A stretch of DNA of 62,982 bases from an uncultured Bacteroidia bacterium (GTDB lineage: Bacteria; Bacteroidota; Bacteroidia; Bacteroidales; ML635J-15). The stretch spans positions 1 to 62,982 of the forward strand of contig CADARW010000006.1 of the NCBI GenBank assembly GCA_902790405.1, in the 5' to 3' direction. Below are positions 4,456-60,527 of the stretch, in pieces. Numbering within the stretch: the stretch's first letter is position 1; every line of letters starts with the position of its first letter. Position numbers and translations under genes: made by a program. A model generated the notes under the pieces. The model did not search any database. It was given only the letters and a program-made list of their open reading frames with translations, and was not told where the DNA came from.

Positions 4456-4892
4456 CAGTGGATAGGGTATTTTATGTTGGTCTTTATGATGTATGCCTCC
4501 GGATATTTTGGCAATAGGTCTTTCATCAGCACCAAAGCCTCGAAACGTGTCATAAAGTCGCCGACGTGCACTTCGAAGTTCGGTTCGACGAAAGTTACGT
4601 ATGCTTCGTGGTCGTCGTTGCTGCATGCAGAGCGAATGGCGTTGGCTCGTCCACGTGCATCCTGTGTGTTCTGTGCAAAAACTTTTACGCGGTAGCCGGG
4701 GAATCCGTCACGCTTCTTGTTGAGGCCTACGCAGGTTTCCATGAAGTTCTTCAGTGCGGCGTCCTGTTCAACTTTTACCTTTCCGTTGTAGCATGAGTCG
4801 CTGAAGTATTTTATGCGTGAAGGGGTTATGTTCTGTCCCATCATTTGCAATGAGCAGAAGGCTATTATGAATATTATCACGAACTTTTTCAT
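4455..4892 (-). CDS. SPOR domain-containing secreted protein
   Basis: The ORF-track start at 4901 is a TTG. The first ATG, at 4892, gives MKKFVIIFIIAFCSLQ (signal peptide). The C-terminal YRVKVFAQ..GRANAI...V.F.EPNFEVHVGDF fold is SPOR-like. A TAccTTTG box lies just upstream. Confidence 0.8.
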   Translation of the reverse strand: MKKFVIIFIIAFCSLQMMGQNITPSRIKYFSDSCYNGKVKVEQDAALKNFMETCVGLNKKRDGFPGYRVKVFAQNTQDARGRANAIRSACSNDDHEAYVTFVEPNFEVHVGDFMTRFEALVLMKDLLPKYPEAYIIKTNIKYPIH

Positions 4893-6990: not shown

Positions 6991-7012
6991 AGACCGCTAA
7001 GGTCTTTTTTTT
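6991..7012 (+). terminator. intrinsic terminator of the dksA-like gene
   Basis: AGACC-GCTAA-GGTCT followed by T8. Confidence 0.8.
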
Positions 7013-7016
7013 GTTT

Positions 7017-7328
7017 CTATGGCTTCGCCGTTTGAAAGTTTAGATGCCTGCGGCGTTTCTGTGGCTAAAGCCGTTTCACGCTGGCGCTGTTTCAATGGCT
7101 TCGCCGTTTCTGGGTTGGGGGCTTGCAGTCTTACAGTCTTACAGTCTTACAGTCTTTCAGCCTTTCGGCCTTTCAGTCTTTTAGCCTTTTAGCCCCATTT
7201 GCATCTTGTCAGCCAACCTAGAAACTTAGAAACTTAGAAACCTAGAAACCTTGAACCCTTGAAACGGCGCACCCATAGAACGGCGAAGCCCTCAACGAAG
7301 TTAACCTTTAGCTCAGCGTAAGCTAAAC
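7017..7328. repeat. GTTTC-phased mini-hairpin repeat array A (head-to-head, with central 8-bp microsatellites)
   Basis: Forward units (GGCTTCGCC/GCCTGCGGC/GGCTAAAGCC + GTTTC) span 7017-7115. 8-bp repeats CAGTCTTA-like x9 span 7126-7197. 8-bp repeats YTAGAAAC x6 span 7218-7265. Reverse-oriented units plus CTCAACGAAGTTAA span 7266-7304. An AACCTTTAGCTC hairpin lies at 7303-7328. Confidence 0.85.
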
Positions 7329-7386
7329 TTTTAAACAAATCTCTGTTTTTTCATAAAAATTTTGTTCATCCTAATTCATTATTTCT

Positions 7387-51847: not shown

Positions 51848-52480
51848 TTAAAAATTTCTAATAGCCCTTACATTTGAGTAGTCACCTTTGGGTGTTGCTA
51901 TTGATGCCCCGGCGAAATTTAGCATCCAGGCGCTGATAACGCCGCCATTTTCTTCGGTACACGACCAGTATTGCCGTCCGTTCATTCTGCTTCCTCCCGC
52001 AGCATCGAGGGCTGCGTTTATTTCGGGCATATTGCCGTAAAGGACTATGAGTTGCCCAATAGCAGGCAGGTACCAGCCGTTGCCATATTGTACAGCCGCA
52101 TTTACAGCAGACGAATATTGTTCCAAAGTCCAGCCCAACCGTTGTGCGGTATGTGTTATAGAGTCGCAGCGCATAGAACCAATTGTATCGTTATAAATAG
52201 TCTGTGGGTTGTTGTTATAGCCTTGTAGGTAGCATAAACTTCCTTCGTTACCCCAAGGCATAGCTCCCTGCCCAGCATCGTTAAGCGCTAGCGCCCAGCC
52301 GTGCTGTTGAGTGTTGTCAACAAAAAACACAACGCCGAGTGCTGTCCTGCCGCTTGCGACAAAATCGTTGGATGAAACTACCGAGTTGTCGGTGCAAAGT
52401 ATGTCGCCAACATGAACTTGGGCCTGTGCATATACAACTATGGACACAAGTGCCACAAATATTACAATAAGATGTTTCAT
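51848..52480 (-). CDS. secreted DUF1566-like protein, paralogous to the head of the downstream giant protein
   Basis: Trimmed to the ATG at 52480 (MKHLIVIFVALVSIVVYAQAQ). HVGDILC...GVVFFVD..QHGWALALND...GWYLPAIGQL parallels HIGDIVY...VVFYVFDDGNHGWAVSLND...GWYLPSAGQM. Confidence 0.6.
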   Translation of the reverse strand: MKHLIVIFVALVSIVVYAQAQVHVGDILCTDNSVVSSNDFVASGRTALGVVFFVDNTQQHGWALALNDAGQGAMPWGNEGSLCYLQGYNNNPQTIYNDTIGSMRCDSITHTAQRLGWTLEQYSSAVNAAVQYGNGWYLPAIGQLIVLYGNMPEINAALDAAGGSRMNGRQYWSCTEENGGVISAWMLNFAGASIATPKGDYSNVRAIRNF

Positions 52481-52609
52481 AGTTTTTCCCTTTTTTATTT
52501 GGAGCAAAGTTATATAATAATTTGTTATATAACAACAAAAAAATACTTTCGTTGCCACGTAGACGAAAAAACTATGAAAGAAAGTCAGTATTACAAGCTT
52601 TCGGCTATT

Positions 52610-53221
52610 TTATTTTACCTTCATGTCGATCAGCTTCTGTTCGCCCATGTAAGCCTTGAGCTTGTCGCCGATTTCGAGTTTGCCAACTCCCAATGGAGTG
52701 CCGGTGTATATAAGGTCGCCGATTTTCAGGGTCATGTATTTCGACACGTGTTCGATTATGTCGTCGATTGAGAAAAGCATGTCGGAGGTATTGCCATGTT
52801 GCACCTCTGCGTCGTTGCGCAGCAGGCGGAAGTCGATGCTGTTTTTGTCGGGCAGTTCGTCGAGCGGAACAAATTCCGACAGCACAGCCGAGCCGTCGAA
52901 CGACTTGCATATTTCCCACGGCAGACCACGCCGACGACAATCTTCCTGCAGGTCGCGGGCAGTAAGGTCGAGACCAAGAGCCACGGCATCGTAGTAGCGA
53001 TAGGCAAATTTTTTCTGTATGTGCTTGCCCAGACGACTGATGCGATATACAACCTCGAGTTCGTACTGCAGATTGTCGGTCCAGTCGGGAATAAAGAAAA
53101 CCTTGTTGCCCTTCAGTATCGACGAGTCGGGCTTCATAAAGAATACTGGTGCCTCGGGATAGGGGAGGTTTAGCTCGGCAATGTGAGCCTTGTAGTTCAT
53201 TCCTATGCAGATAATCTTCAT
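52610..53221 (-). CDS. fumarylacetoacetate hydrolase (FAH) family protein
   Basis: 203 aa with MKIICIGMNYKAH start, ELEVV, DLTARDLQ and GDLIYTGTP.GVG motifs. Confidence 0.88.
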   Translation of the reverse strand: MKIICIGMNYKAHIAELNLPYPEAPVFFMKPDSSILKGNKVFFIPDWTDNLQYELEVVYRISRLGKHIQKKFAYRYYDAVALGLDLTARDLQEDCRRRGLPWEICKSFDGSAVLSEFVPLDELPDKNSIDFRLLRNDAEVQHGNTSDMLFSIDDIIEHVSKYMTLKIGDLIYTGTPLGVGKLEIGDKLKAYMGEQKLIDMKVK

Positions 53222-53281
53222 TGACGTAATTTTTTTTCGAGATGCAAAGATGGGAAATTTTTATTGATTGGGGAATTAAAA

Positions 53282-53490
53282 GTTTCTGGGTTTAACTTCG
53301 TTGAGGGCTTCGCCGTTCTATGCCTTCGGCGTTTATAAGTTTGAATGGCTAAAGCCGTTTCTGTGTTTCATGGGCTAACGCCCGTTTCTATGCCTGCGTC
53401 GTTTCTGGGTTTAACTTCGTTGAGGGCTTCGCCGTTCTATGGCTACGCCGTTTCTGGGTTTCTAGGTTTCTGGTTTCAAGTTGTTTGAGA
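53282..53490 (+). repeat. GTTTC-phased mini-hairpin repeat array B
   Basis: A perfect 41-nt direct repeat GTTTCTGGGTTTAACTTCGTTGAGGGCTTCGCCGTTCTATG lies at 53282-53322 and 53401-53441. Units such as GCCTTCGGCGTTT, GGCTAAAGCCGTTTC and GGCTAACGCCCGTTTC lie between the copies. A GGTTTCTAGGTTTCTGGTTTCAAG tail follows. Confidence 0.9.
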
Positions 53491-53651
53491 AGGTTTTACT
53501 GCTTTTAGTTATGGAATGAAAATTTGGTTTGTTGCGATGCGGAACTACGTGTTACCACAAAGTCAAATTAACATATTTTTAACAAAAAAAACGCCAAAAT
53601 CGATGATTTTGCTTATATTTGCACCATTATTAACCATAAAATTAAATTGTT

Positions 53652-54065
53652 ATGAATACCTATACCAAACCCCAAAACATTATCGATTACACCGTAATGG
53701 GACTGCTTTCAGTATGCGCAATTTTGGCAGCAGCAAGCATTCCGTACGCGTTGACATGCTTCATTTTCCTTTGGTTAGCATCGCTTGTAATATTTCTCAT
53801 TACCAGCATCCGTAGTAAGATTTACAAGACCAGCATACTTGCATTCATAATCGACCTGTACTGCAAAATGAATATGTTTGTCGGAGTTTGGTTTGTAAGC
53901 AAGGGCTATGCAGGCAAGGAAATGATTGGAACATATATTTCGGCATTGTTGGTTGGCTACCTTATCTACGACCTCATTGCAAAGAAAATTCCTGTGCACC
54001 GTCCGCTGTCATACCTGTTGATATATGCAATCACGACTGGCGTTTGCGCAGCGATAACGATGTAA
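53652..54065 (+). CDS. hypothetical 4-TM membrane protein
   Basis: 137 aa with four hydrophobic helices. A TAtaTTTG box lies about 40 nt upstream. No family recognised. Confidence 0.55.
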   Translation: MNTYTKPQNIIDYTVMGLLSVCAILAAASIPYALTCFIFLWLASLVIFLITSIRSKIYKTSILAFIIDLYCKMNMFVGVWFVSKGYAGKEMIGTYISALLVGYLIYDLIAKKIPVHRPLSYLLIYAITTGVCAAITM

Positions 54066-54150
54066 GCCTGTATTTCGACTTTTTTTCGCCAACTGCATAT
54101 TTTTACCCAATCCCCGAAAAATAAACGATAATAATTGATGATTTTTGTGC

Positions 54151-54226
54151 GACCTCGCAGAGGTCGTTTTTCTTGTAATTATTTGTTCTATAGATATTTG
54201 ACCTCTCCGAGGTCTGTTCTTTTTTA
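54151..54226 (+). terminator. two tandem intrinsic terminators built on the same palindrome (GACCTC-GCA-GAGGTC + T5; GACCTC-TCC-GAGGTC + TGTTCTTTTTT)
   Basis: Hairpins at 54151-54165 and 54200-54214, each followed by a T-rich tract, downstream of the 53652-54065 gene. Confidence 0.6.
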
Positions 54227-54682
54227 CCCGATATATTCCCAACGACCTTTTTGAGGTTTGATATTATTATTGTTGTCCTCTAAAATTATGCAAACCCACA
54301 CAAAATGCGCTGTGTCAGATTGTTATGTAGGCAAGAATCATGTGGGCTTGTTAATTGGATAGACATAATAACCTCGGAGAGGTTGTATATATATAGATAA
54401 AAGAGTGCATTTGTGGGCGTTGGCGCATATTTTTGCTGCGGAATGAAATGAAGTAATGCAAAAATTGTGACAACGCGGGATTTTGCAGGCATTAATAGGT
54501 ATTTATAAAAACATGGCAAGCAATAACAGCGACCTCGGAGATGTAGTATAAAATGTCAAATCCAATAATTTTCCATTCCTAATAACATAAATGCTTAAAT
54601 TTGCCGTTTTATTGTATTTGCAATTCGGATGATTCTTTGCAACGGCAACGGCGACAAACGGCTTTCCACTTTGTGGATTCGC

Positions 54683-57600
54683 ATGGCGTGCATATTTTTT
54701 ATGCTTGCCACGTTGCCAGCATTGAATTTGTCGGCACAGTCGCTGATAAGCCTGAAAAATCTGTCGGTGCAGGGCGATACACTGGTGCTCGACTCGATGA
54801 GCGTGGTGCAAAGTTCCATAAAATTCGTAGATGCCGACGGAAATCCTGTTGACGCAAAATACCATTTCGACTTCGAAACCTCGACCATAGTGTTCGACGA
54901 GAAGCCACCCGCAGGAACAAAAGTCAGCTTCAAGACCTTCCCCGTAAACTTTTCGAAGCCGGCACAGAAATTCGACCGTAGCAAGTATATGCTTTCCGAC
55001 CATGAGCACGAACGCACAGGCTACGATCTTATTCTTACCAAGGAAAACTACGACGACTTCTTCTCGCAGACCGAACTTTCGCGCAAGGGAAGCATTTCGC
55101 GTGGCGTGAGCTTCGGGAACAGCCAGAATGTGATTATGAACTCAAACCTCGACCTGCAACTCGACGGACGAATCGGTGACAACCTTTTCATTTCGGCGGT
55201 CATAAGCGACAACAACATCCCCATCCAGCCCGACGGCAACTCGCAGAACCTGCAGGAGTTCGACAAGGTTTTCATCAAGATTTACAATTCCAAGTTTGCG
55301 CTTATTGCAGGCGATTTCGAGCAGAAAAAACCGCAGGGATATTTCCTCAACTACTACAAGAAGTCGCAGGGCATTCACCTTTCGGGCAAAAAGACTTTCG
55401 AGACGGCAAAGCATAATGCTGGCGAACTGAACGCTTCGTTAGGTGCGGCGGTTGCCAAGGGCAAGTATCACAAGATGCAGATTTCGGGCGTGGAGGGTAA
55501 CCAAGGTCCGTACCGGCTTACTGGTGCCAACAACGAGGCGTATGTGGTGGTACTCGCTGGAACCGAAAAGGTTTACATCGACGGAATCCTGATGTCGCGC
55601 GGAAGCGACCGCGACTATGTCATCGACTACAACCTCGGCGAGATTACCTTCACGGCGCACCAGCCCATCAACAAGGACAAGCGCATTATCGTAGAATTTG
55701 AGTACACCGACCAGAACTATACGCGATTCCTCGTCACCTCGTCAAATAGCTTGAAAATCGACAACACCGAGGTCTGGCTCAACCTCTACCACGAAGGCGA
55801 CAGCAAGAACCAGCCCATCAATATGGACCTCCGCGATTCCGACAAGCGACTGATGGCAGGCATCGGCGACAACCTCGACCAAGCCATTATCCTACAAGGT
55901 TGTCGATACCATTGTCGATGGCGTGCAGTACGATTCGGTTTTCGTGTATAGCACCAATCCGCAGGAAGCTTTCTACAGGGTTTCGTTTTCGCTTGTGGGC
56001 GAAAATAAGGGCGACTATGTGCGCGGAGTGTCGTCGGCAAACGGCAGGGTCTATGAGTGGGTTGCACCGGTAAATGGTGTTCCACAAGGAAACTATATTC
56101 CTTATACAAAGATAGTTGCACCGCAGAAAAAACAGATGGCGACATTCGGGGCAAAGTCGAAGTTCGGAGAAAAGACAAGCGCATCGGTTGAAGTCGCTCT
56201 ATCGAGCAACGACCGCAACACCTTTTCGAAACTCGACCGTGGCGACAATTTTGGCGTTGCAGTGAAAACAACAGCCGAGCAATACATTGTGAAAACCGAG
56301 AAGAACAGCCTCAGTTTCGATGTGAACTATGAATTTCTGAACCGTAACTTCGAAGCCGTAGAGTATTTTCGCGAAACTGAATTCACAAGAGACTGGAACA
56401 TAGGTTCTTACTATGCCGATTCGCACTGCGAGAATGTTGCTGGCGGACATATCCGATATGCCAACCGAAAGCATGGAAATTCTCTCTACACAACCTCGTA
56501 CATAAACCGTGGCGTGGAATATTCGGGTTGGAAAAACGATTTTTCGTCCGATTATAGGCTTGGAACATGGCGAATTTCGGGAAATGCTTCGTTGCTTGCA
56601 AGTGCCGACTCGCTCAACAAAACCCAGTTTTTGCGACATAAGCTCGATATTTCCAAGACCTTTGGCAAAATAATAATAGGTGCCCGCGAAGAAGGCGAGC
56701 GCAATGTTTGGCACAATACCGAAGGCAACTTGCTGGCAAACAGCTATTCGTACAGTCAGTACGAAGGATTTGCCGGCACATCCGACTCGGCACGACAGAA
56801 GTTTACGTTGTCGTACAAGTTCCGCAACGACCGCAAGCAGAGCCTCGACATACTGAAGGATGCCACCCGCGCACATGACTTTTCGCTGTCGTCGGAAGTT
56901 GGCGGAAAGAACAACCACCGCCTGAAAGCGACCATCAACTACCGTCTGCTACAGGTGCGCGACACTCTGCTCTATACAGCCGAACCCGAAGACAACCTCA
57001 CAGGCAAGCTCGAATACAACTTTAAGCTGTGGAAAGGCGCGATAACTTCATCTACTTTGTACGAAATAGGTTCGGGCTTGGAAAACAAGATTGAATACAC
57101 CTACATCGAAGTTGCTCCAGGTCAGGGCGTTTACACTTGGACCGACTACAATGGCAACGGAGTGCAGGAACTTGACGAGTTCGAGGTCGCATTCTTTGCC
57201 GACCAGGCCAACTTCATCCGCGTGCAGATGCCATCCACAGAATATATAAAGGTGTATGCCAACAAGTTCAACCAGAGCCTCAACATAAATCCTGCAGTGC
57301 GCTGGAAGTCGAAGAAAGGTTTTCTCAAGTTCCTTAGCCGCTTCTCCGACCAGTTTGCATATAGCATTTCGCAGAAAAACACCTCGGACAAGATAGCAGA
57401 ATTTGCAAATCCGTTTGCGCAGAACATCAGTCTCGACGAACTTGTCTCGATGAACTCGACCATCCGCAACAGCCTGTCGTTCAACCGAGGAAAACCAAAG
57501 TTCGGCATCGACTACATTGTGCAGTCGGTGAAGGGCAAGAGTCTGCTAACCACTGGTTTCGACTCGCGTACAAATTTCACACAGAATATTCTTATTAGGT

Positions 57601-58091
57601 ACAACATTTCTCCCAAGGTGGGAATGCAGAACTCGACAATTTTCGGCAAGAAAGGTTACGAATCTCAGTTTTTCACCGCCAAGGATTACAAAATCGCTAG
57701 CCTCAAGGACGATTTCCAGTTCAATGTACAACCCAACATCAACAACCGCATTTCGCTAACCTACAATTTCGAGCAGAAGGAAAACACATCGGGCGCCGAA
57801 AAACTTACCAGCAACAATGTCGGCCTTGAGTACCGCCTCAATTCGGTGAAAAAAGGTTCGCTCAATGCAAATTTCAACTTTATATATTATAAGTATGCCA
57901 GCAGTGGCAATTCTGCCATCGACTACGAGATGTTACAAGGATTGCAGCCGGGCATGAATTTCACTTGGGGAGTAAATTTCCAGCGTCAGCTAGCCAACGG
58001 ATTGCAAATCAACCTTTCGTACAATGGTCGCAAGAGCGAAGCTTCGCCGGTGATACATACGGCAAGTGTGGAAGTGAGAGCGTATTTTTAG
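54683..58091 (+). pseudogene. ~1135-aa conserved outer-membrane (beta-barrel-type) protein gene, interrupted by one +1 frame change near 55885-55895
   Basis: ORFs 54629..55951 (start trimmed to MACIFFMLATLPALNLSAQS at 54683) and 55923..58091 overlap. The second frame is open from 55854, and both halves read as one protein (..GDNLDQAII / YKVVDTIVDGVQYDSVFVY..). The C-terminus ...SVEVRAYF ends in an aromatic residue, as in OM barrels. This could also be a sequencing error. Confidence 0.6.
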
Positions 58092-58900
58092 GCTAAAGCC
58101 GTTTCTATGGCTTCGCCGTTTCTGTGCCTTCGGCGTTTCAAGGTTTCAATGGCTGACGCCGTTTCTGTGCCTTCTGCATTTCAAGGTTTCAATGGCTACG
58201 CCGTTTCTGTGCCTTCTGCGTTTCAAGGTTTCAATGGCTACGCCGTTTCAATGCCTTCGGCGTTTGAAATTGTTTAACTTCGTTGAGGGCTGCGCCGTTC
58301 AATGCCTTCGGCGTTTATCGCTGACGCTGTTTCAATGGGCTGCGCCCGTTTCTGGGTTTCAATGGCTACGCCGTTTGAGTTGCATTATCTGTCTCCTGTC
58401 CCGTTAGGGACAATGCTTCGGTAGGATAAAATCCGACCGGAGCAGGCGTGCCGTTAGGTACGCAGCTAGTCAACCGTTTTGCAGTATTGATACAGATATT
58501 CCAAGCATAGTGTTTGAGTGGCAAAAGCCGTTTAACTTCGTTGAGCTAAAGGTTGGCTTACGCCGAGCTAAATGTTAACTTCGTTGAGGGCTGCGCCGTT
58601 CAAGGTTTCAGTGGCTACGCCGTTTCAATGCTTCGCGTTTCTATGTGCTTCGCACGTTTGAATGGCTTCGCCGTTTCTGTGGCTACGCCGTTTCTATGTG
58701 CTACGCCCGTTTCTAGGTTTCTATGCCTTCGCCGTTTGAATGGCTACGCCGTTTCTCGCTTCGCCGTTTCTAAAAAAGCGGAATGTCATGCTGAACTTGT
58801 TTCAGCATCTGATTCCGCTTTTTTTAACTTCGTTGAGGGCTACTTGTACTGAGCACAGTCGAAGTACGCCGTTCAATGGCTTCGCCGTTTCTGTATTAAA
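58090..58900 (+). repeat. GTTTC-phased mini-hairpin repeat array C (largest copy, ~0.8 kb, all in forward orientation)
   Basis: The array starts at the stop codon of the OM protein gene. It has three 42/43-bp tandem units (58123-58165, 58166-58207, 58208-58249). Four TTAACTTCGTTGAG words lie at 58274, 58532, 58575 and 58824. There are dozens of GGC-NNN-GCC + GTTTC units, a non-repeat island at 58381-58520, and an embedded terminator hairpin. Confidence 0.9.
58772..58825. terminator. long bidirectional terminator-like hairpin embedded in array C
   Basis: AAAAAAGCGGAAT-GTC-ATGCTGAA-CTTGT-TTCAGCAT-CTG-ATTCCGCTTTTTT, with an A-tract before it and a T-tract after it. Confidence 0.65.
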
Positions 58901-59135
58901 GGGTTCAACGATTCGATGCTGAGCTGTGCTGTGGATTTTATATCTACCGAATGTTTTTAGGTATCATTGTCCTTTTATTTGTTCCAATGTGCAATAAATT
59001 GCCCATATTATCAGCATGTTGAAAAATAAAAATTCAAAAAAAAGTTTGCATGTATTGAAAACTTTATTAAACTTGCAGTTCGAATTAATTTCAAAAAAGA
59101 AAAGCAAACTTATTATTAATTTAAATTTAAATGTT

Positions 59136-60527
59136 ATGAAGAAATTTTACATGATTTTGGCTGCCTTATTAATAGGTAGTGTGTGCTTTGCACAGAAAAC
59201 TGTGACATTGACAGAAAAGACATTGCCTTCACAAAGCAATCAAACAAGAGAAACAGGTTGGTATGGAGAATCTGTACTAGCATCTTATCAAGACCTGACA
59301 GCAGGGGGATACTTTATTATCAGACCTGAAACCTATCAAGGTGCAACAACGTCTGGAGAACAAGTTGAAAAAATCAAATTTTATGTTGTTAGTCCATCTT
59401 TGTTACAAGGTGATGACGCAACCACTTATGCTTCATACACAAACCTCAGTTTTACTATTAAGATTTATGAAGGGTCTGCTATGAATGCTGATTTATTGGA
59501 TATAGATGCTGGATATACCGAAGATAATGATGCAGTACTTGGCACATTGGTGCGCACTATTCCATATACTGCTACTCAAGCTGGTGAACAGGTTGTTGAA
59601 TTGTCAGAACCTTATACAATTGGCTCCTCTAATTATTGGATAACTTTGGAAAGTAACGGAAATTCTCTGATTGGTGTTAACTACACACAAATCTCAAATA
59701 CTGTTACTCCTGAAGAATATCAAGGTGGCACTGAACCAGAATATACTATATCTGATTATAGCGGAGCTCATTATCTATTGTATGAAGTTGATCAATATCT
59801 TGACATTGACGTTCCTCTGGCTTTGCTTTATACAGATGATACACATAACGCAATTGCATACTTTTTCACTAATGCATATTTTCAGATATATGTACAGGGT
59901 GCAGGTGAATTCGTTCCGAATTCAGACGTCGCAGCTGTCTTCGCAGATGCAAATCCTCCCACAGGTTTAGCTCCTACAAGTATGACTTTGGACTTAAATG
60001 ATAATTTGGTATTGTATCCATTTGTAATGAATATGGGACCAGATGCAACTGATGGTACAATTACAGCTTCAATAACAATAGATGATGAAGTTATAGCTTC
60101 TTTGCCAATAACTCAATCCGTGCCATCTCAAAATGGTTTAGCACTTACTCAGCAGGGTCAGAACTCATTTACAATACCAGCAGCAAATTTGCCAACAACA
60201 AATTTCAATGTATGTTTAGTTGTAGAATATTCAGGTGCTGGTGATAATGCAAATAACAACACAACATGCATTGCTGTAACAAGACCGACCACAGTTGAAG
60301 AAAACGTAGCAGAAGCAGTTTCTGTATATCCTAACCCAGCAAACGACATGTTCACCGTTGCTAACGCAGAAGGTGCTACTATCGTAGTTGTTAACTCGCT
60401 CGGTCAGGTTGTTGCTACTATCGAAAATGCAGCTTCGAACCAAACTATCGACGCTAGCAACTTCGCAAACGGAACCTACTTCGTAAAGGTTAACGAAGAA
60501 GTTGTAAGAATCAACGTTGTAAAGTAA
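59136..60527 (+). CDS. T9SS-secreted hypothetical protein (463 aa)
   Basis: Trimmed to the ATG at 59136 (MKKFYMILAALLIGSVCFAQ). The C-terminal VSVYPNPANDMFTV...GTYFVKV...INVVK is a type-A T9SS CTD. The passenger region has no recognisable family. Confidence 0.8.
   Translation: MKKFYMILAALLIGSVCFAQKTVTLTEKTLPSQSNQTRETGWYGESVLASYQDLTAGGYFIIRPETYQGATTSGEQVEKIKFYVVSPSLLQGDDATTYASYTNLSFTIKIYEGSAMNADLLDIDAGYTEDNDAVLGTLVRTIPYTATQAGEQVVELSEPYTIGSSNYWITLESNGNSLIGVNYTQISNTVTPEEYQGGTEPEYTISDYSGAHYLLYEVDQYLDIDVPLALLYTDDTHNAIAYFFTNAYFQIYVQGAGEFVPNSDVAAVFADANPPTGLAPTSMTLDLNDNLVLYPFVMNMGPDATDGTITASITIDDEVIASLPITQSVPSQNGLALTQQGQNSFTIPAANLPTTNFNVCLVVEYSGAGDNANNNTTCIAVTRPTTVEENVAEAVSVYPNPANDMFTVANAEGATIVVVNSLGQVVATIENAASNQTIDASNFANGTYFVKVNEEVVRINVVK

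Follow-up and report, generated by a model that had tools for sequence, protein, structure and literature searches.

The locus studied here raises the question of what kind of element fills the 0.8 kb between an outer-membrane protein gene and the gene that follows it on contig CADARW010000006.1 of an uncultured Bacteroidia bacterium, and whether any host function has to be assumed to explain it. The element, array C (positions 58090-58900), lies in a window that comprises the whole of that contig (62,982 nt; contig C6), which belongs to a 2.75-Mb draft metagenome-assembled genome (MAG) of 229 contigs and 43.8% G+C, designated G000. A preliminary description, made from the sequence alone, regarded the array as the largest member of an apparently undescribed family of interspersed repeats composed of GTTTC-phased mini-hairpin units. 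The present analysis shows that the array belongs to a modular, non-coding and fast-evolving satellite that is confined to a subclade of the genus and shares one module, the head, with scattered Bacteroidota. We put at roughly 50% the probability that array C is a non-coding satellite mosaic of the kind represented by repetitive extragenic palindromes (REPs) and bacterial interspersed mosaic elements (BIMEs) or by BrickBuilt elements, and that it is mainly selfish or neutral; a host function is unnecessary to explain the family. Below, C-numbers denote contigs of G000 (array C and its sub-arrays C1 and C2 are always named as such), other G-numbers (G002, G003, G009, G010, G011, G020 and G024) denote relatives, and L-numbers denote other loci or contigs. 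Because G000 is a short-read MAG, from which the rRNA operon is missing, exact unit counts are possibly off.

Architecture of array C

The grammar of the units was read by splitting the sequence at GTT[T/C]. Array C then resolves into 17-nt and 8-nt units, four heads, one long insert and one terminator, with all units pointing in a single direction as the preliminary description had claimed, and it extends from the stop codon of one gene to the promoter region of the next. The features of the locus, together with the two other arrays of the window, are the following.

55923-58091, plus strand: upstream gene, a 722-aa open reading frame (ORF) of the ORF list, labeled 'OM protein', with its TAG stop codon at 58089-58091
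58091-58271, plus strand: sub-array C1, GGCTAAAGCC over the stop codon, then 17-nt units and 8-nt hairpin-less units
58272-58296, plus strand: head copy 1, GTTTAACTTCGTTGAG plus GGCTGCGCC, scoring 47 bits with the head covariance model R1
58297-58372, plus strand: five more units
58373-58529, plus strand: the 'island', a structured repeat treated in its own section
58530-58597, plus strand: truncated head (58530-58545), then leader module CTAAAGGTTGGCTTACGCCGAGCTAAATG, then head copy 3 (58575-58597)
58598-58771, plus strand: sub-array C2, eleven units of 15-19 nt or 8 nt in one direction
58772-58825, no strand assigned: bidirectional intrinsic terminator, with A6, an interrupted 13+8-bp stem and T7
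58824-58870, plus strand: head copy 4, with an imperfect palindrome (58840-58866) enlarging the loop of its second mini-hairpin
58871-58894, plus strand: the last two units, GTTCAATGGCTTCGCC and GTTTCTGT
7010-7331, no strand assigned: array A, forward units, 8-nt microsatellites, and reversed units ending in a reversed head and leader
53282-53490, plus strand: array B, two heads with 17-nt and 8-nt units in a divergent intergenic region

Array C starts on the TAG stop codon, the G of which is the first base of the opening hairpin GGCTAAAGCC, in agreement with the start that had been noticed before. The phasing is equally evident: GTTT[C/G] occurs 29 times on the plus strand of 58090-58900 and not once on the minus strand, against 1.9 occurrences expected, and the spacings are mostly 17 nt (12 times) or 8 nt (4 times), followed by 19 nt (3 times) and 15 nt (twice). 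A 17-nt unit of sub-array C1 consists of an 8-nt GTTTCWRT spacer and a 9-10-nt GSC-TNC-GSC hairpin, and the tandem 42/43-bp higher order described earlier was recovered by TRF as a 42-nt repeat within C1 (3.9 copies at 58101-58265, 91% matches), with a 17-nt period at 58612-58715. The unit head TTAACTTCGTTGAG was found at the four positions predicted for it (58274, 58532, 58575 and 58824), and a leader-head junction like that at 58530-58597 recurs at at least 14 loci in G000. The embedded terminator folds at -26.9 kcal/mol on either strand (z -6.3 and -7.4) and is flanked by an A-run and a T-run, which agrees with its designation as strong and bidirectional, and the palindrome-expanded loop at 58840-58866 folds at -14.1 kcal/mol, again as proposed. 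The two ORFs over array C matched no NCBIfam model and can be taken as repeat artefacts, as had been suspected. Arrays A and B follow the same grammar as array C and belong to the same family. The Bacteroidetes promoter consensus TTTG-N19-21-TAnnTTTG has no match inside arrays A-C.

As for the upstream gene, the first 29 nt of the 722-aa ORF (55923-58091) are shared, in a different frame, with a 440-aa ORF (54629-55951), and a frameshift or sequencing error may have divided a single large outer-membrane protein gene into these two.

A dispersed family made of mini-hairpins

In G000 there are 51 arrays with at least three strict units, nearly all of them in a single orientation, and 126 phased GTT[T/C] chains with a total extent of 12.6 kb, which is 0.46% of the genome; 5 such chains are found when the genome is shuffled. 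The family is, therefore, interspersed genome-wide, and array C is its largest composite locus in G000, both in accordance with the preliminary description. Its apparent novelty also held in our searches: no Rfam family was matched by 52000-60000 (cmscan, E <= 1), no paper was retrieved by a full-text literature search with the head sequence and its reverse complement, the head does not appear in the REP tables of Quentin et al. (PMC6006769), and phage, plasmid and IMG/VR viral collections gave no relevant matches.

The 212 17-mers have the consensus GTTT(C/G)(A/T)(A/G)T-G-S-C-T-N-C-G-S'-C, and pairing is complete in 171 of them; the middle position forms a G-C pair in 97, a C-G pair in 86 and no pair in 29. 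Among the fully paired 17-mers TTC accounts for 70, TGC for 59 and TAC for 37, so that the form TNC is found in 166 of the 171 (97%), and the hairpins that precede GTT[T/C] genome-wide have TTC (136), TGC (91) and TAC (56) loops, compared with a share of 8% for TNC loops among all comparable hairpins of G000. The frequent 4-nt loops TGAC, TGGC and TAGC are GNNA on the opposite strand, with TAAA as the exception. Since a T-N-C loop on the plus strand is a C-G-closed G-N-A loop on the other, the GAAAC strand of the units reads GGCGAAGCC, GCCGCAGGC, AGCGAAGCG and the like, all of which take the form GCGNAGC or CCGNAGG. On the same strand the head (TTAACTTCGTTGAGGGCTTCGCCGTT) reads GAAC-GGCGAAGCC-CTC-AACGAAGTT-AA, which comprises two GAA mini-hairpins, and the leader (GTTTAGCTTACGCTGAGCTAAAGG), which sits before heads, carries GCGTAAGC.

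These are the motifs of mini-hairpin DNA, GCGNAGC and GCGNNAGC, and of the CCGAAGG found in ssiA of RSF1010, which are unusually stable in single-stranded DNA in a manner not captured by standard folding parameters (PMC13037366). As judged from its sequences, the family is built from this motif on its GAAAC strand, where nearly all units, the head (GGCGAAGCC and AACGAAGTT) and the leader (GCGTAAGC) carry it. The natural cases known so far are, however, isolated occurrences, located in promoters and in the priming origins of phages or plasmids (PMC13037366), whereas the present ones are dispersed chromosomal arrays with tens of tandem copies, known from sequence. As RNA, in contrast, the units do not fold better than shuffled sequence (z -0.8 and -0.2), and this weakens the idea of a role in RNA stability that had been among the functions considered.

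In addition to units, heads and leaders, the recurring modules include tail hairpins (GAGACGCAA..TTGCGTCTGTACAA and GTCGTGGCGCGCCGCGAC), 8-nt microsatellites and the terminator hairpin. Higher-order repeats are specific to the locus, such as a 49-nt repeat in six copies at C90 and a 43-nt repeat in six copies at C18, and the polarity of the stems alternates within arrays between GGC..GCC and GCC..GGC. The 8-nt microsatellites (CTTACAGT, GCCTTCAA, GCCTTTTC, CCTGTTAG and others) regularly occur 3' of arrays, behind a tail hairpin that terminates in TGTACAA, for example at 7122-7265 of the window, at ~8400-8480 of C99, and in C21, C18 and C8, and could indicate where a complete element has its tail. 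The terminator hairpin GGAATGTCATGCTGAACTTGTTTCAGCATCTGATTCC is likewise a dispersed module, with near-identical copies on contigs C2 (~32440), C8 (~27250) and C51 (~3130) and in L029; the copies serve differing genes and are usually followed by GTTTCT, a leader and a head. A resemblance of the minus strand to a CRISPR handle (ATTGAAAC after the hairpin) was dropped, since spacers are lacking and the 8-mer varies; nor is the array itself a CRISPR array, because its units abut without spacers and its period is 8 or 17 nt.

Turnover at orthologous sites

Orthologues of the upstream gene in five relatives (G002, G003, G009, G010 and G011) share 83-92% nucleotide identity and an identical end position, and in all six species an array begins at the orthologous stop codon, with content and length that are entirely different. 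The array extends over 810 nt in G000, over ~105 nt before the same terminator in G002, and over ~75 nt in G010 and G011, where it is mostly composed of 8-nt GTT(T/C)AAR units. Relative to the sister species G002, the window carries two additional 42-nt copies, an additional block of ~330 nt (head, units, island and leader-head) after GTTTGAAATT, and eight additional units before the shared terminator, the counterpart of sub-array C2 in G002 being 3 units. The terminator is kept at the orthologous site in G002 and G003, and an expanded head after the same terminator is found also in G002 and L029, the latter being a non-orthologous locus of another species at which terminator, leader and expanded head stand as a composite. 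Many arrays of relatives have no counterpart in G000 at sites whose flanks can be aligned, and comparison of filled and empty sites allowed neither a target-site duplication nor a terminal inverted repeat (TIR) to be defined. At a closer distance, metagenome contig L200 (JAEEGJ010031430.1), 95% identical to the C6 gene, differs by whole units at the start of the array. The check for expansion or contraction suggested in the preliminary description, made here between relatives, reveals differences by whole units and blocks at orthologous sites. The same contig contains, at 4465-4870, a junction inside the repeat with 95% identity to C6 on one side and 85% to C50 on the other, and represents either a chimeric assembly or recombination between arrays.

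Position relative to genes and replication

With gene contexts taken from a simple longest-ORF caller, the arrays of G000 are distributed over co-oriented tandem (16), anti-oriented tandem (6), convergent (13) and divergent (14) contexts, and the 14 in divergent contexts mean that divergent promoter regions are not avoided. In most of the 27 cases with a co-oriented upstream gene, array material begins 0-3 nt from the stop codon, with junctions such as TAG|GCTAAAGCC, TGA|GGGCTTCGCC and GGTT-TAA-CTTCG. Toward convergent genes more space is left, the array 3' ends lying 42-211 nt from the stop codon in 17 of 19 cases and 12 and 644 nt away in the other two. Stop codons are part of the units themselves, in spacers of the forms GTTTC-TAG/TAA/TGA and GTT-TGA-AT and in the 4-nt loops C-TGA-C and C-TAA-A, which would explain why arrays that directly adjoin genes are tolerated. 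A comparison of L100 with C12 illustrates this arrangement, the gene in the relative being five codons longer and ending at a TAA within the loop of GGCTAACGCC. The statement that the family always lies in intergenic DNA needs a qualifier, in that arrays abut stop codons and sometimes supply them.

The orientation of arrays relative to flanking genes and to replication, which the preliminary description proposed to analyze, gave no consistent pattern. Heads in the relatives are anti-oriented with their flanking genes in 40 cases and co-oriented in 27. The bias of arrays relative to GC skew in G000 (33 vs 16, p = 0.02) was not reproduced in the relatives (25 vs 25).

The head in other Bacteroidota

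Within the genus, the 17-nt head (with at most one mismatch) is present in 27-84 copies in ~10 of 24 congeners, in 5 copies in one more and in at most one copy in the rest. The positive congeners are those that can still be aligned with G000 at the DNA level, and the family, as far as sequence comparison can tell, therefore looks clade-restricted and vertically kept.

Outside the genus, a scan of 185,579 species genomes for the exact 17-mer returned at least 118 loci, with ~70 matches expected by chance. Among the matches listed, most are from ruminant Bacteroidales, and the other carriers are Draconibacterium, Brumimicrobium glaciale, Parapedobacter tibetensis, Hufsiella ginkgonis, two Mucilaginibacter species, Bernardetia sp. 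OM2101, a Cytophagales MAG, a Saprospirales MAG, and lake and termite-gut MAGs; L065, L075 (labeled Acidobacteriaceae) and L078 look like chance matches, and all three are without the TTCGCCGTT continuation. In ten of the distant genomes the head is multi-copy: seven contain 5-13 head copies, two contain 38 and 59, and Hufsiella contains 2, with 0-3 matches to a reversed-pattern control. The block conserved across these lineages is 27 nt long, TTAACTTCGTTGAGGGC-T(T/A)CGCC-GTT(C/T), and is always embedded in short repeats that are specific to the lineage. In Bernardetia and the Cytophagales MAG the flanks are 7-8-bp inverted words that close a stem, with compensatory variants; in one Bacteroidales MAG they are GAATAA/TTATTC, in Mucilaginibacter tandem ATTTCGGA units, and in the Saprospirales MAG ATTCGTGT units or GGAGGGA palindromes.

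Carriers are rare. The 17-mer was above background in none of 200 random genomes of the phylum, a 24-mer matched one of 400 random genomes, and covariance model R1 detected clear heads in ~2 of 150 Bacteroidia genomes and diverged multi-copy variants in one or two more. Because E-values of R1 are miscalibrated, with noise of 19-21 bits in most genomes, matches were used at ~25 bits or more, or when multi-copy. Overall, the head is absent from ~99% of sampled Bacteroidota.

The head of Bernardetia sp. OM2101 (a complete chromosome; L143-L152) lies at the center of a ~170-nt element similar to MITEs (miniature inverted-repeat transposable elements), with TIRs of ~29 nt (TATACTCATACG.TTTTGGTTTTCGAAAA); 25 such ends were found, five of them in complete pairs. 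No parent insertion sequence (IS) was found there, in that no inward-facing pair of the 25 ends is 1-3 kb apart.

The island and an IS200-type tnpA

The region 58381-58520 had been described as a non-repeat island, and this part of the description has to be revised, since the region is itself a repeat with at least 12 copies in G000 at 84-97% identity, all of them in the 3' part of arrays. The island (58373-58530) is a ~140-150-nt element of three hairpins, two with GTTA loops, inside a long-range stem ATCTGTCTC/GAGACAGAT; as RNA it folds with z = -4.6. The word GTTTGAG stands on both its sides (58373-58379 and 58512-58518) and is constant across copies. At C101:1-320 the island is present as three partial copies in tandem, which extend over the last codons and stop codon of an IS200-family tnpA (C101:315-836), whose product scores 79 bits against NF033573 (cut-off 55) and contains the Y-motif YIEKQQEHH, fitting the signature Y---Q--HH of subclass 1.2 of Quentin et al., for which no REP-like partner has been reported (PMC6006769). 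No copy of the island was detected in the congeners and other loci examined.

The island is probably a recently amplified non-autonomous element of the IS200/IS605 type that inserts after GTTTGAG inside arrays. Like known derivatives of that kind, it shares hairpins with the 3' flank of a tnpA, is multi-copy and species-specific, and follows a fixed word; it differs in that no left end is seen, as the contig ends there, and its transposition is putative. The arrangement at C101:1-836, a tnpA with three tandem copies of a two-hairpin element of which at least nine more are dispersed, is REPtron-like, for a subclass that was reported to be REP-less (PMC6006769).

Comparison with known repeat systems

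The closest kinds of element are REP/BIME, REPIN and BrickBuilt. As in REP/BIME of Enterobacteria and REPIN-RAYT of Pseudomonas (RAYT, REP-associated tyrosine transposase), the repeats are short extragenic hairpins in tens to hundreds of copies (PMC3116915, PMC2817692 and PMC6006769), form mosaics with accessory motifs, often stand right after stop codons, turn over rapidly between relatives and persist vertically in a clade, which bears out the resemblance, with a much smaller unit, that the preliminary description had seen in these modular, intergenic, interspersed mosaics. The differences are nonetheless substantial. The palindrome has 9-10 nt with a 3-4-bp stem, whereas that of REP has 20-40 nt; the foot tag GT[AG]G (or CGTC) is absent from the GTTTC unit consensus; units run in one direction, while REPs alternate in BIMEs; no RAYT flanks or co-occurs with the family; and a 27-nt head is common to distant orders. 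Because palindrome size, tag, RAYT link and alternation all disagree, the GTTTC family is not filed as a REP member.

The BrickBuilt MITE of Porphyromonas gingivalis is also from Bacteroidales, strictly intergenic and ~0.4% of its genome, and has a leader, spacer-less tandem repeats and a tail, with 1 to >20 copies per locus (PMC4596501). Set apart by its description, it has a 23-nt unit instead of 17 or 8 nt, is species-specific and bounded by small TIRs, whereas no TIRs were found here and the head reaches distant Bacteroidota, and it was reported to have promoter activity, in contrast to the lack of a promoter consensus within arrays A-C. The BOX elements of Streptococcus pneumoniae are organized as boxA-boxB(n)-boxC with modules of 45-59 nt. 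They are similarly modular and intergenic, with one short module reiterated in tandem in variable number between others, but have no mini-hairpin or phased pentamer and belong to another phylum.

Origin and maintenance of the family

If array C is indeed a mainly selfish or neutral satellite mosaic, its history can be considered as follows. Hairpins formed in a region that becomes single-stranded during replication or repair would favor slipped-strand mispairing, and the slippage would result in gain or loss of whole units and higher-order blocks. Blocks bearing a head might occasionally reach new intergenic sites through recombination, or through an enzyme acting in trans on single-stranded DNA. 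Stop codons in the units would make the arrays tolerable right up to genes, and terminator modules would keep transcription punctuated. The lack of consistent orientation, of a structural signal in unit RNA, of an Rfam match and of an ORF family speak for such a DNA-level, non-coding interpretation.

Several points weigh against it. Slippage is inferred, and it does not explain the near-invariant 27-nt head in distant orders, which suggests either recognition by a conserved factor or recent horizontal spread. Searches of gene neighbors, of Y1 transposases and of phage, plasmid and viral collections found no vector or enzyme for the head. Nearest-neighbor folding predicts no stable structure for the units, and the stability attributed to the mini-hairpins comes from published chemistry. 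The two-state covariation of the stems (GGC/GCC vs GCC/GGC) could reflect two master copies instead of ongoing selection for pairing, and a function could be indicated by the first hairpin, which all six species have at the stop codon.

The invariance of the head leads to a tentative alternative, possible but clearly the less probable, in which the head, with its two GAA mini-hairpins AACGAAGTT and GGCGAAGCC, is the cis site of an unrecognized, horizontally mobile single-stranded DNA system working by transposition, priming or nicking, and has seeded the satellites of each lineage. If this were true, the family would represent a novel kind of mobile satellite, distinct both from REP/RAYT and from TIR-bounded MITEs.

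Also of low probability is a REP/REPIN-type origin, in which a Y1 (HUH) transposase, whether a RAYT or a TnpA resembling that of IS200, would use units or heads as substrates and cut and paste them as single-stranded DNA, with tandem same-direction arrays arising from repeated insertion beside the element's own target-like end. G000 encodes four genes of the Y1-transposase type, including the IS200-family tnpA and two RAYT-class genes above the NCBIfam cut-off (C78 and C105); the stability of the hairpins on one strand fits transposition through single strands; and the island, which shares hairpins and last tnpA codons with the three tnpA-abutting copies, always follows GTTTGAG, as targeting of the IS200/IS605 type expects. 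The 253-aa RAYT-class gene on C78, moreover, has orthologues only in six repeat-positive congeners. It is, however, missing from the repeat-rich G010 (99% complete) and from the carriers in Mucilaginibacter, Parapedobacter, Brumimicrobium and Saprospirales, while the IS200-like tnpA is missing from the repeat-rich G020 and G024 and common in repeat-free congeners. GTTTC units or heads flank none of the four Y1 genes, the 118 loci among the matches listed have no gene in common beside their heads, and stems of 3-4 bp without a GT[AG]G tag are far shorter than those of known TnpA or RAYT substrates. We thus rejected RAYT or IS200 as a universal partner on the basis of flanks and of co-occurrence in 40 relatives and 10 distant carriers, and the search for a RAYT-like (Y1) partner advised earlier ended with two bona fide RAYT genes that neither adjoin the units nor co-occur with the family.

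One of these, a 186-aa REP-associated tyrosine transposase gene (C105:7100-7839; 99.6 bits, cut-off 80), is flanked by palindromes GGATTTGCAATCC and CGGATTGCAAATCCG, whose patterns have 14 and 10 matches in G000, with overlap between the two sets possible. By its sequence it resembles a second, small REP-RAYT-like system that is unrelated to the GTTTC family.

A function as RNA seems unlikely. According to that explanation the arrays would be 3' untranslated regions or small RNAs that protect against exonucleases, tune the termination of translation or bind an RNA-binding protein. Array C is expected to be mostly transcribed with the upstream gene because it lies between the stop codon and a conserved intrinsic terminator, and both the distance of 0-3 nt from co-oriented stop codons and the excess of co-oriented over anti-oriented tandem contexts in G000 (16 vs 6) would be compatible with such a role. 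REPs of Escherichia coli influence translation at stop codons that lie no more than 15 nt away. Nevertheless, heads of the relatives are anti-oriented as often as co-oriented, 14 of 49 arrays are in divergent promoter regions, unit RNA folds no better than shuffles and has no Rfam family, and the GNA loop asymmetry of array C is on the strand opposite to the upstream mRNA.

Just as improbable, in our estimation, is a protein-binding DNA array, in which the GTTTC words or the head would be candidate sites for a nucleoid-associated protein, gyrase, primase (single-strand initiation) or another factor, and the head would be conserved because its protein is. The extreme conservation of the head across orders amid lineage-specific flanks agrees with this, mini-hairpin motifs including CCGAAGG occur at primase recognition sites (the phage G4 origin and RSF1010 ssiA; PMC13037366), and the absence of an orientation bias fits a site in duplex DNA. 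A conserved host protein, however, predicts a wide distribution, contrary to the rarity of the head in the phylum; with a phasing of 8.5 and 17 nt the sites do not fall on the same helical face; and no candidate protein was identified.

An assembly artefact, namely mis-assembly or collapse of the array in short-read metagenome binning, is very improbable, for although G000 is a 229-contig MAG, L200 switches in a chimera-like manner within its array, and many contigs of another carrier break at the repeat, the family occurs in dozens of independent assemblies, including the complete Bernardetia chromosome and isolate genomes, an array stands at the orthologous stop codon in six species, and array C is inside its contig with unique flanks on either side.

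Significance

The interest of the family lies partly in where it occurs, since REP-like repeats are well studied in Proteobacteria and hardly in Bacteroidota, a dominant phylum of gut and rumen. In practical terms, contigs break at the arrays and one seems chimeric, so the repeats can mislead binning and synteny calls; arrays can give genes their stop codons; and they could serve as strain markers because their length varies between close relatives. The arrays consist almost wholly of a mini-hairpin DNA motif that is otherwise known from a few priming origins, and their head is near-invariant across orders in surroundings that are lineage-specific. If these findings are confirmed, the family would offer a natural system for hairpin-driven repeat instability, and the head would be a handle for finding the factor that recognizes it.

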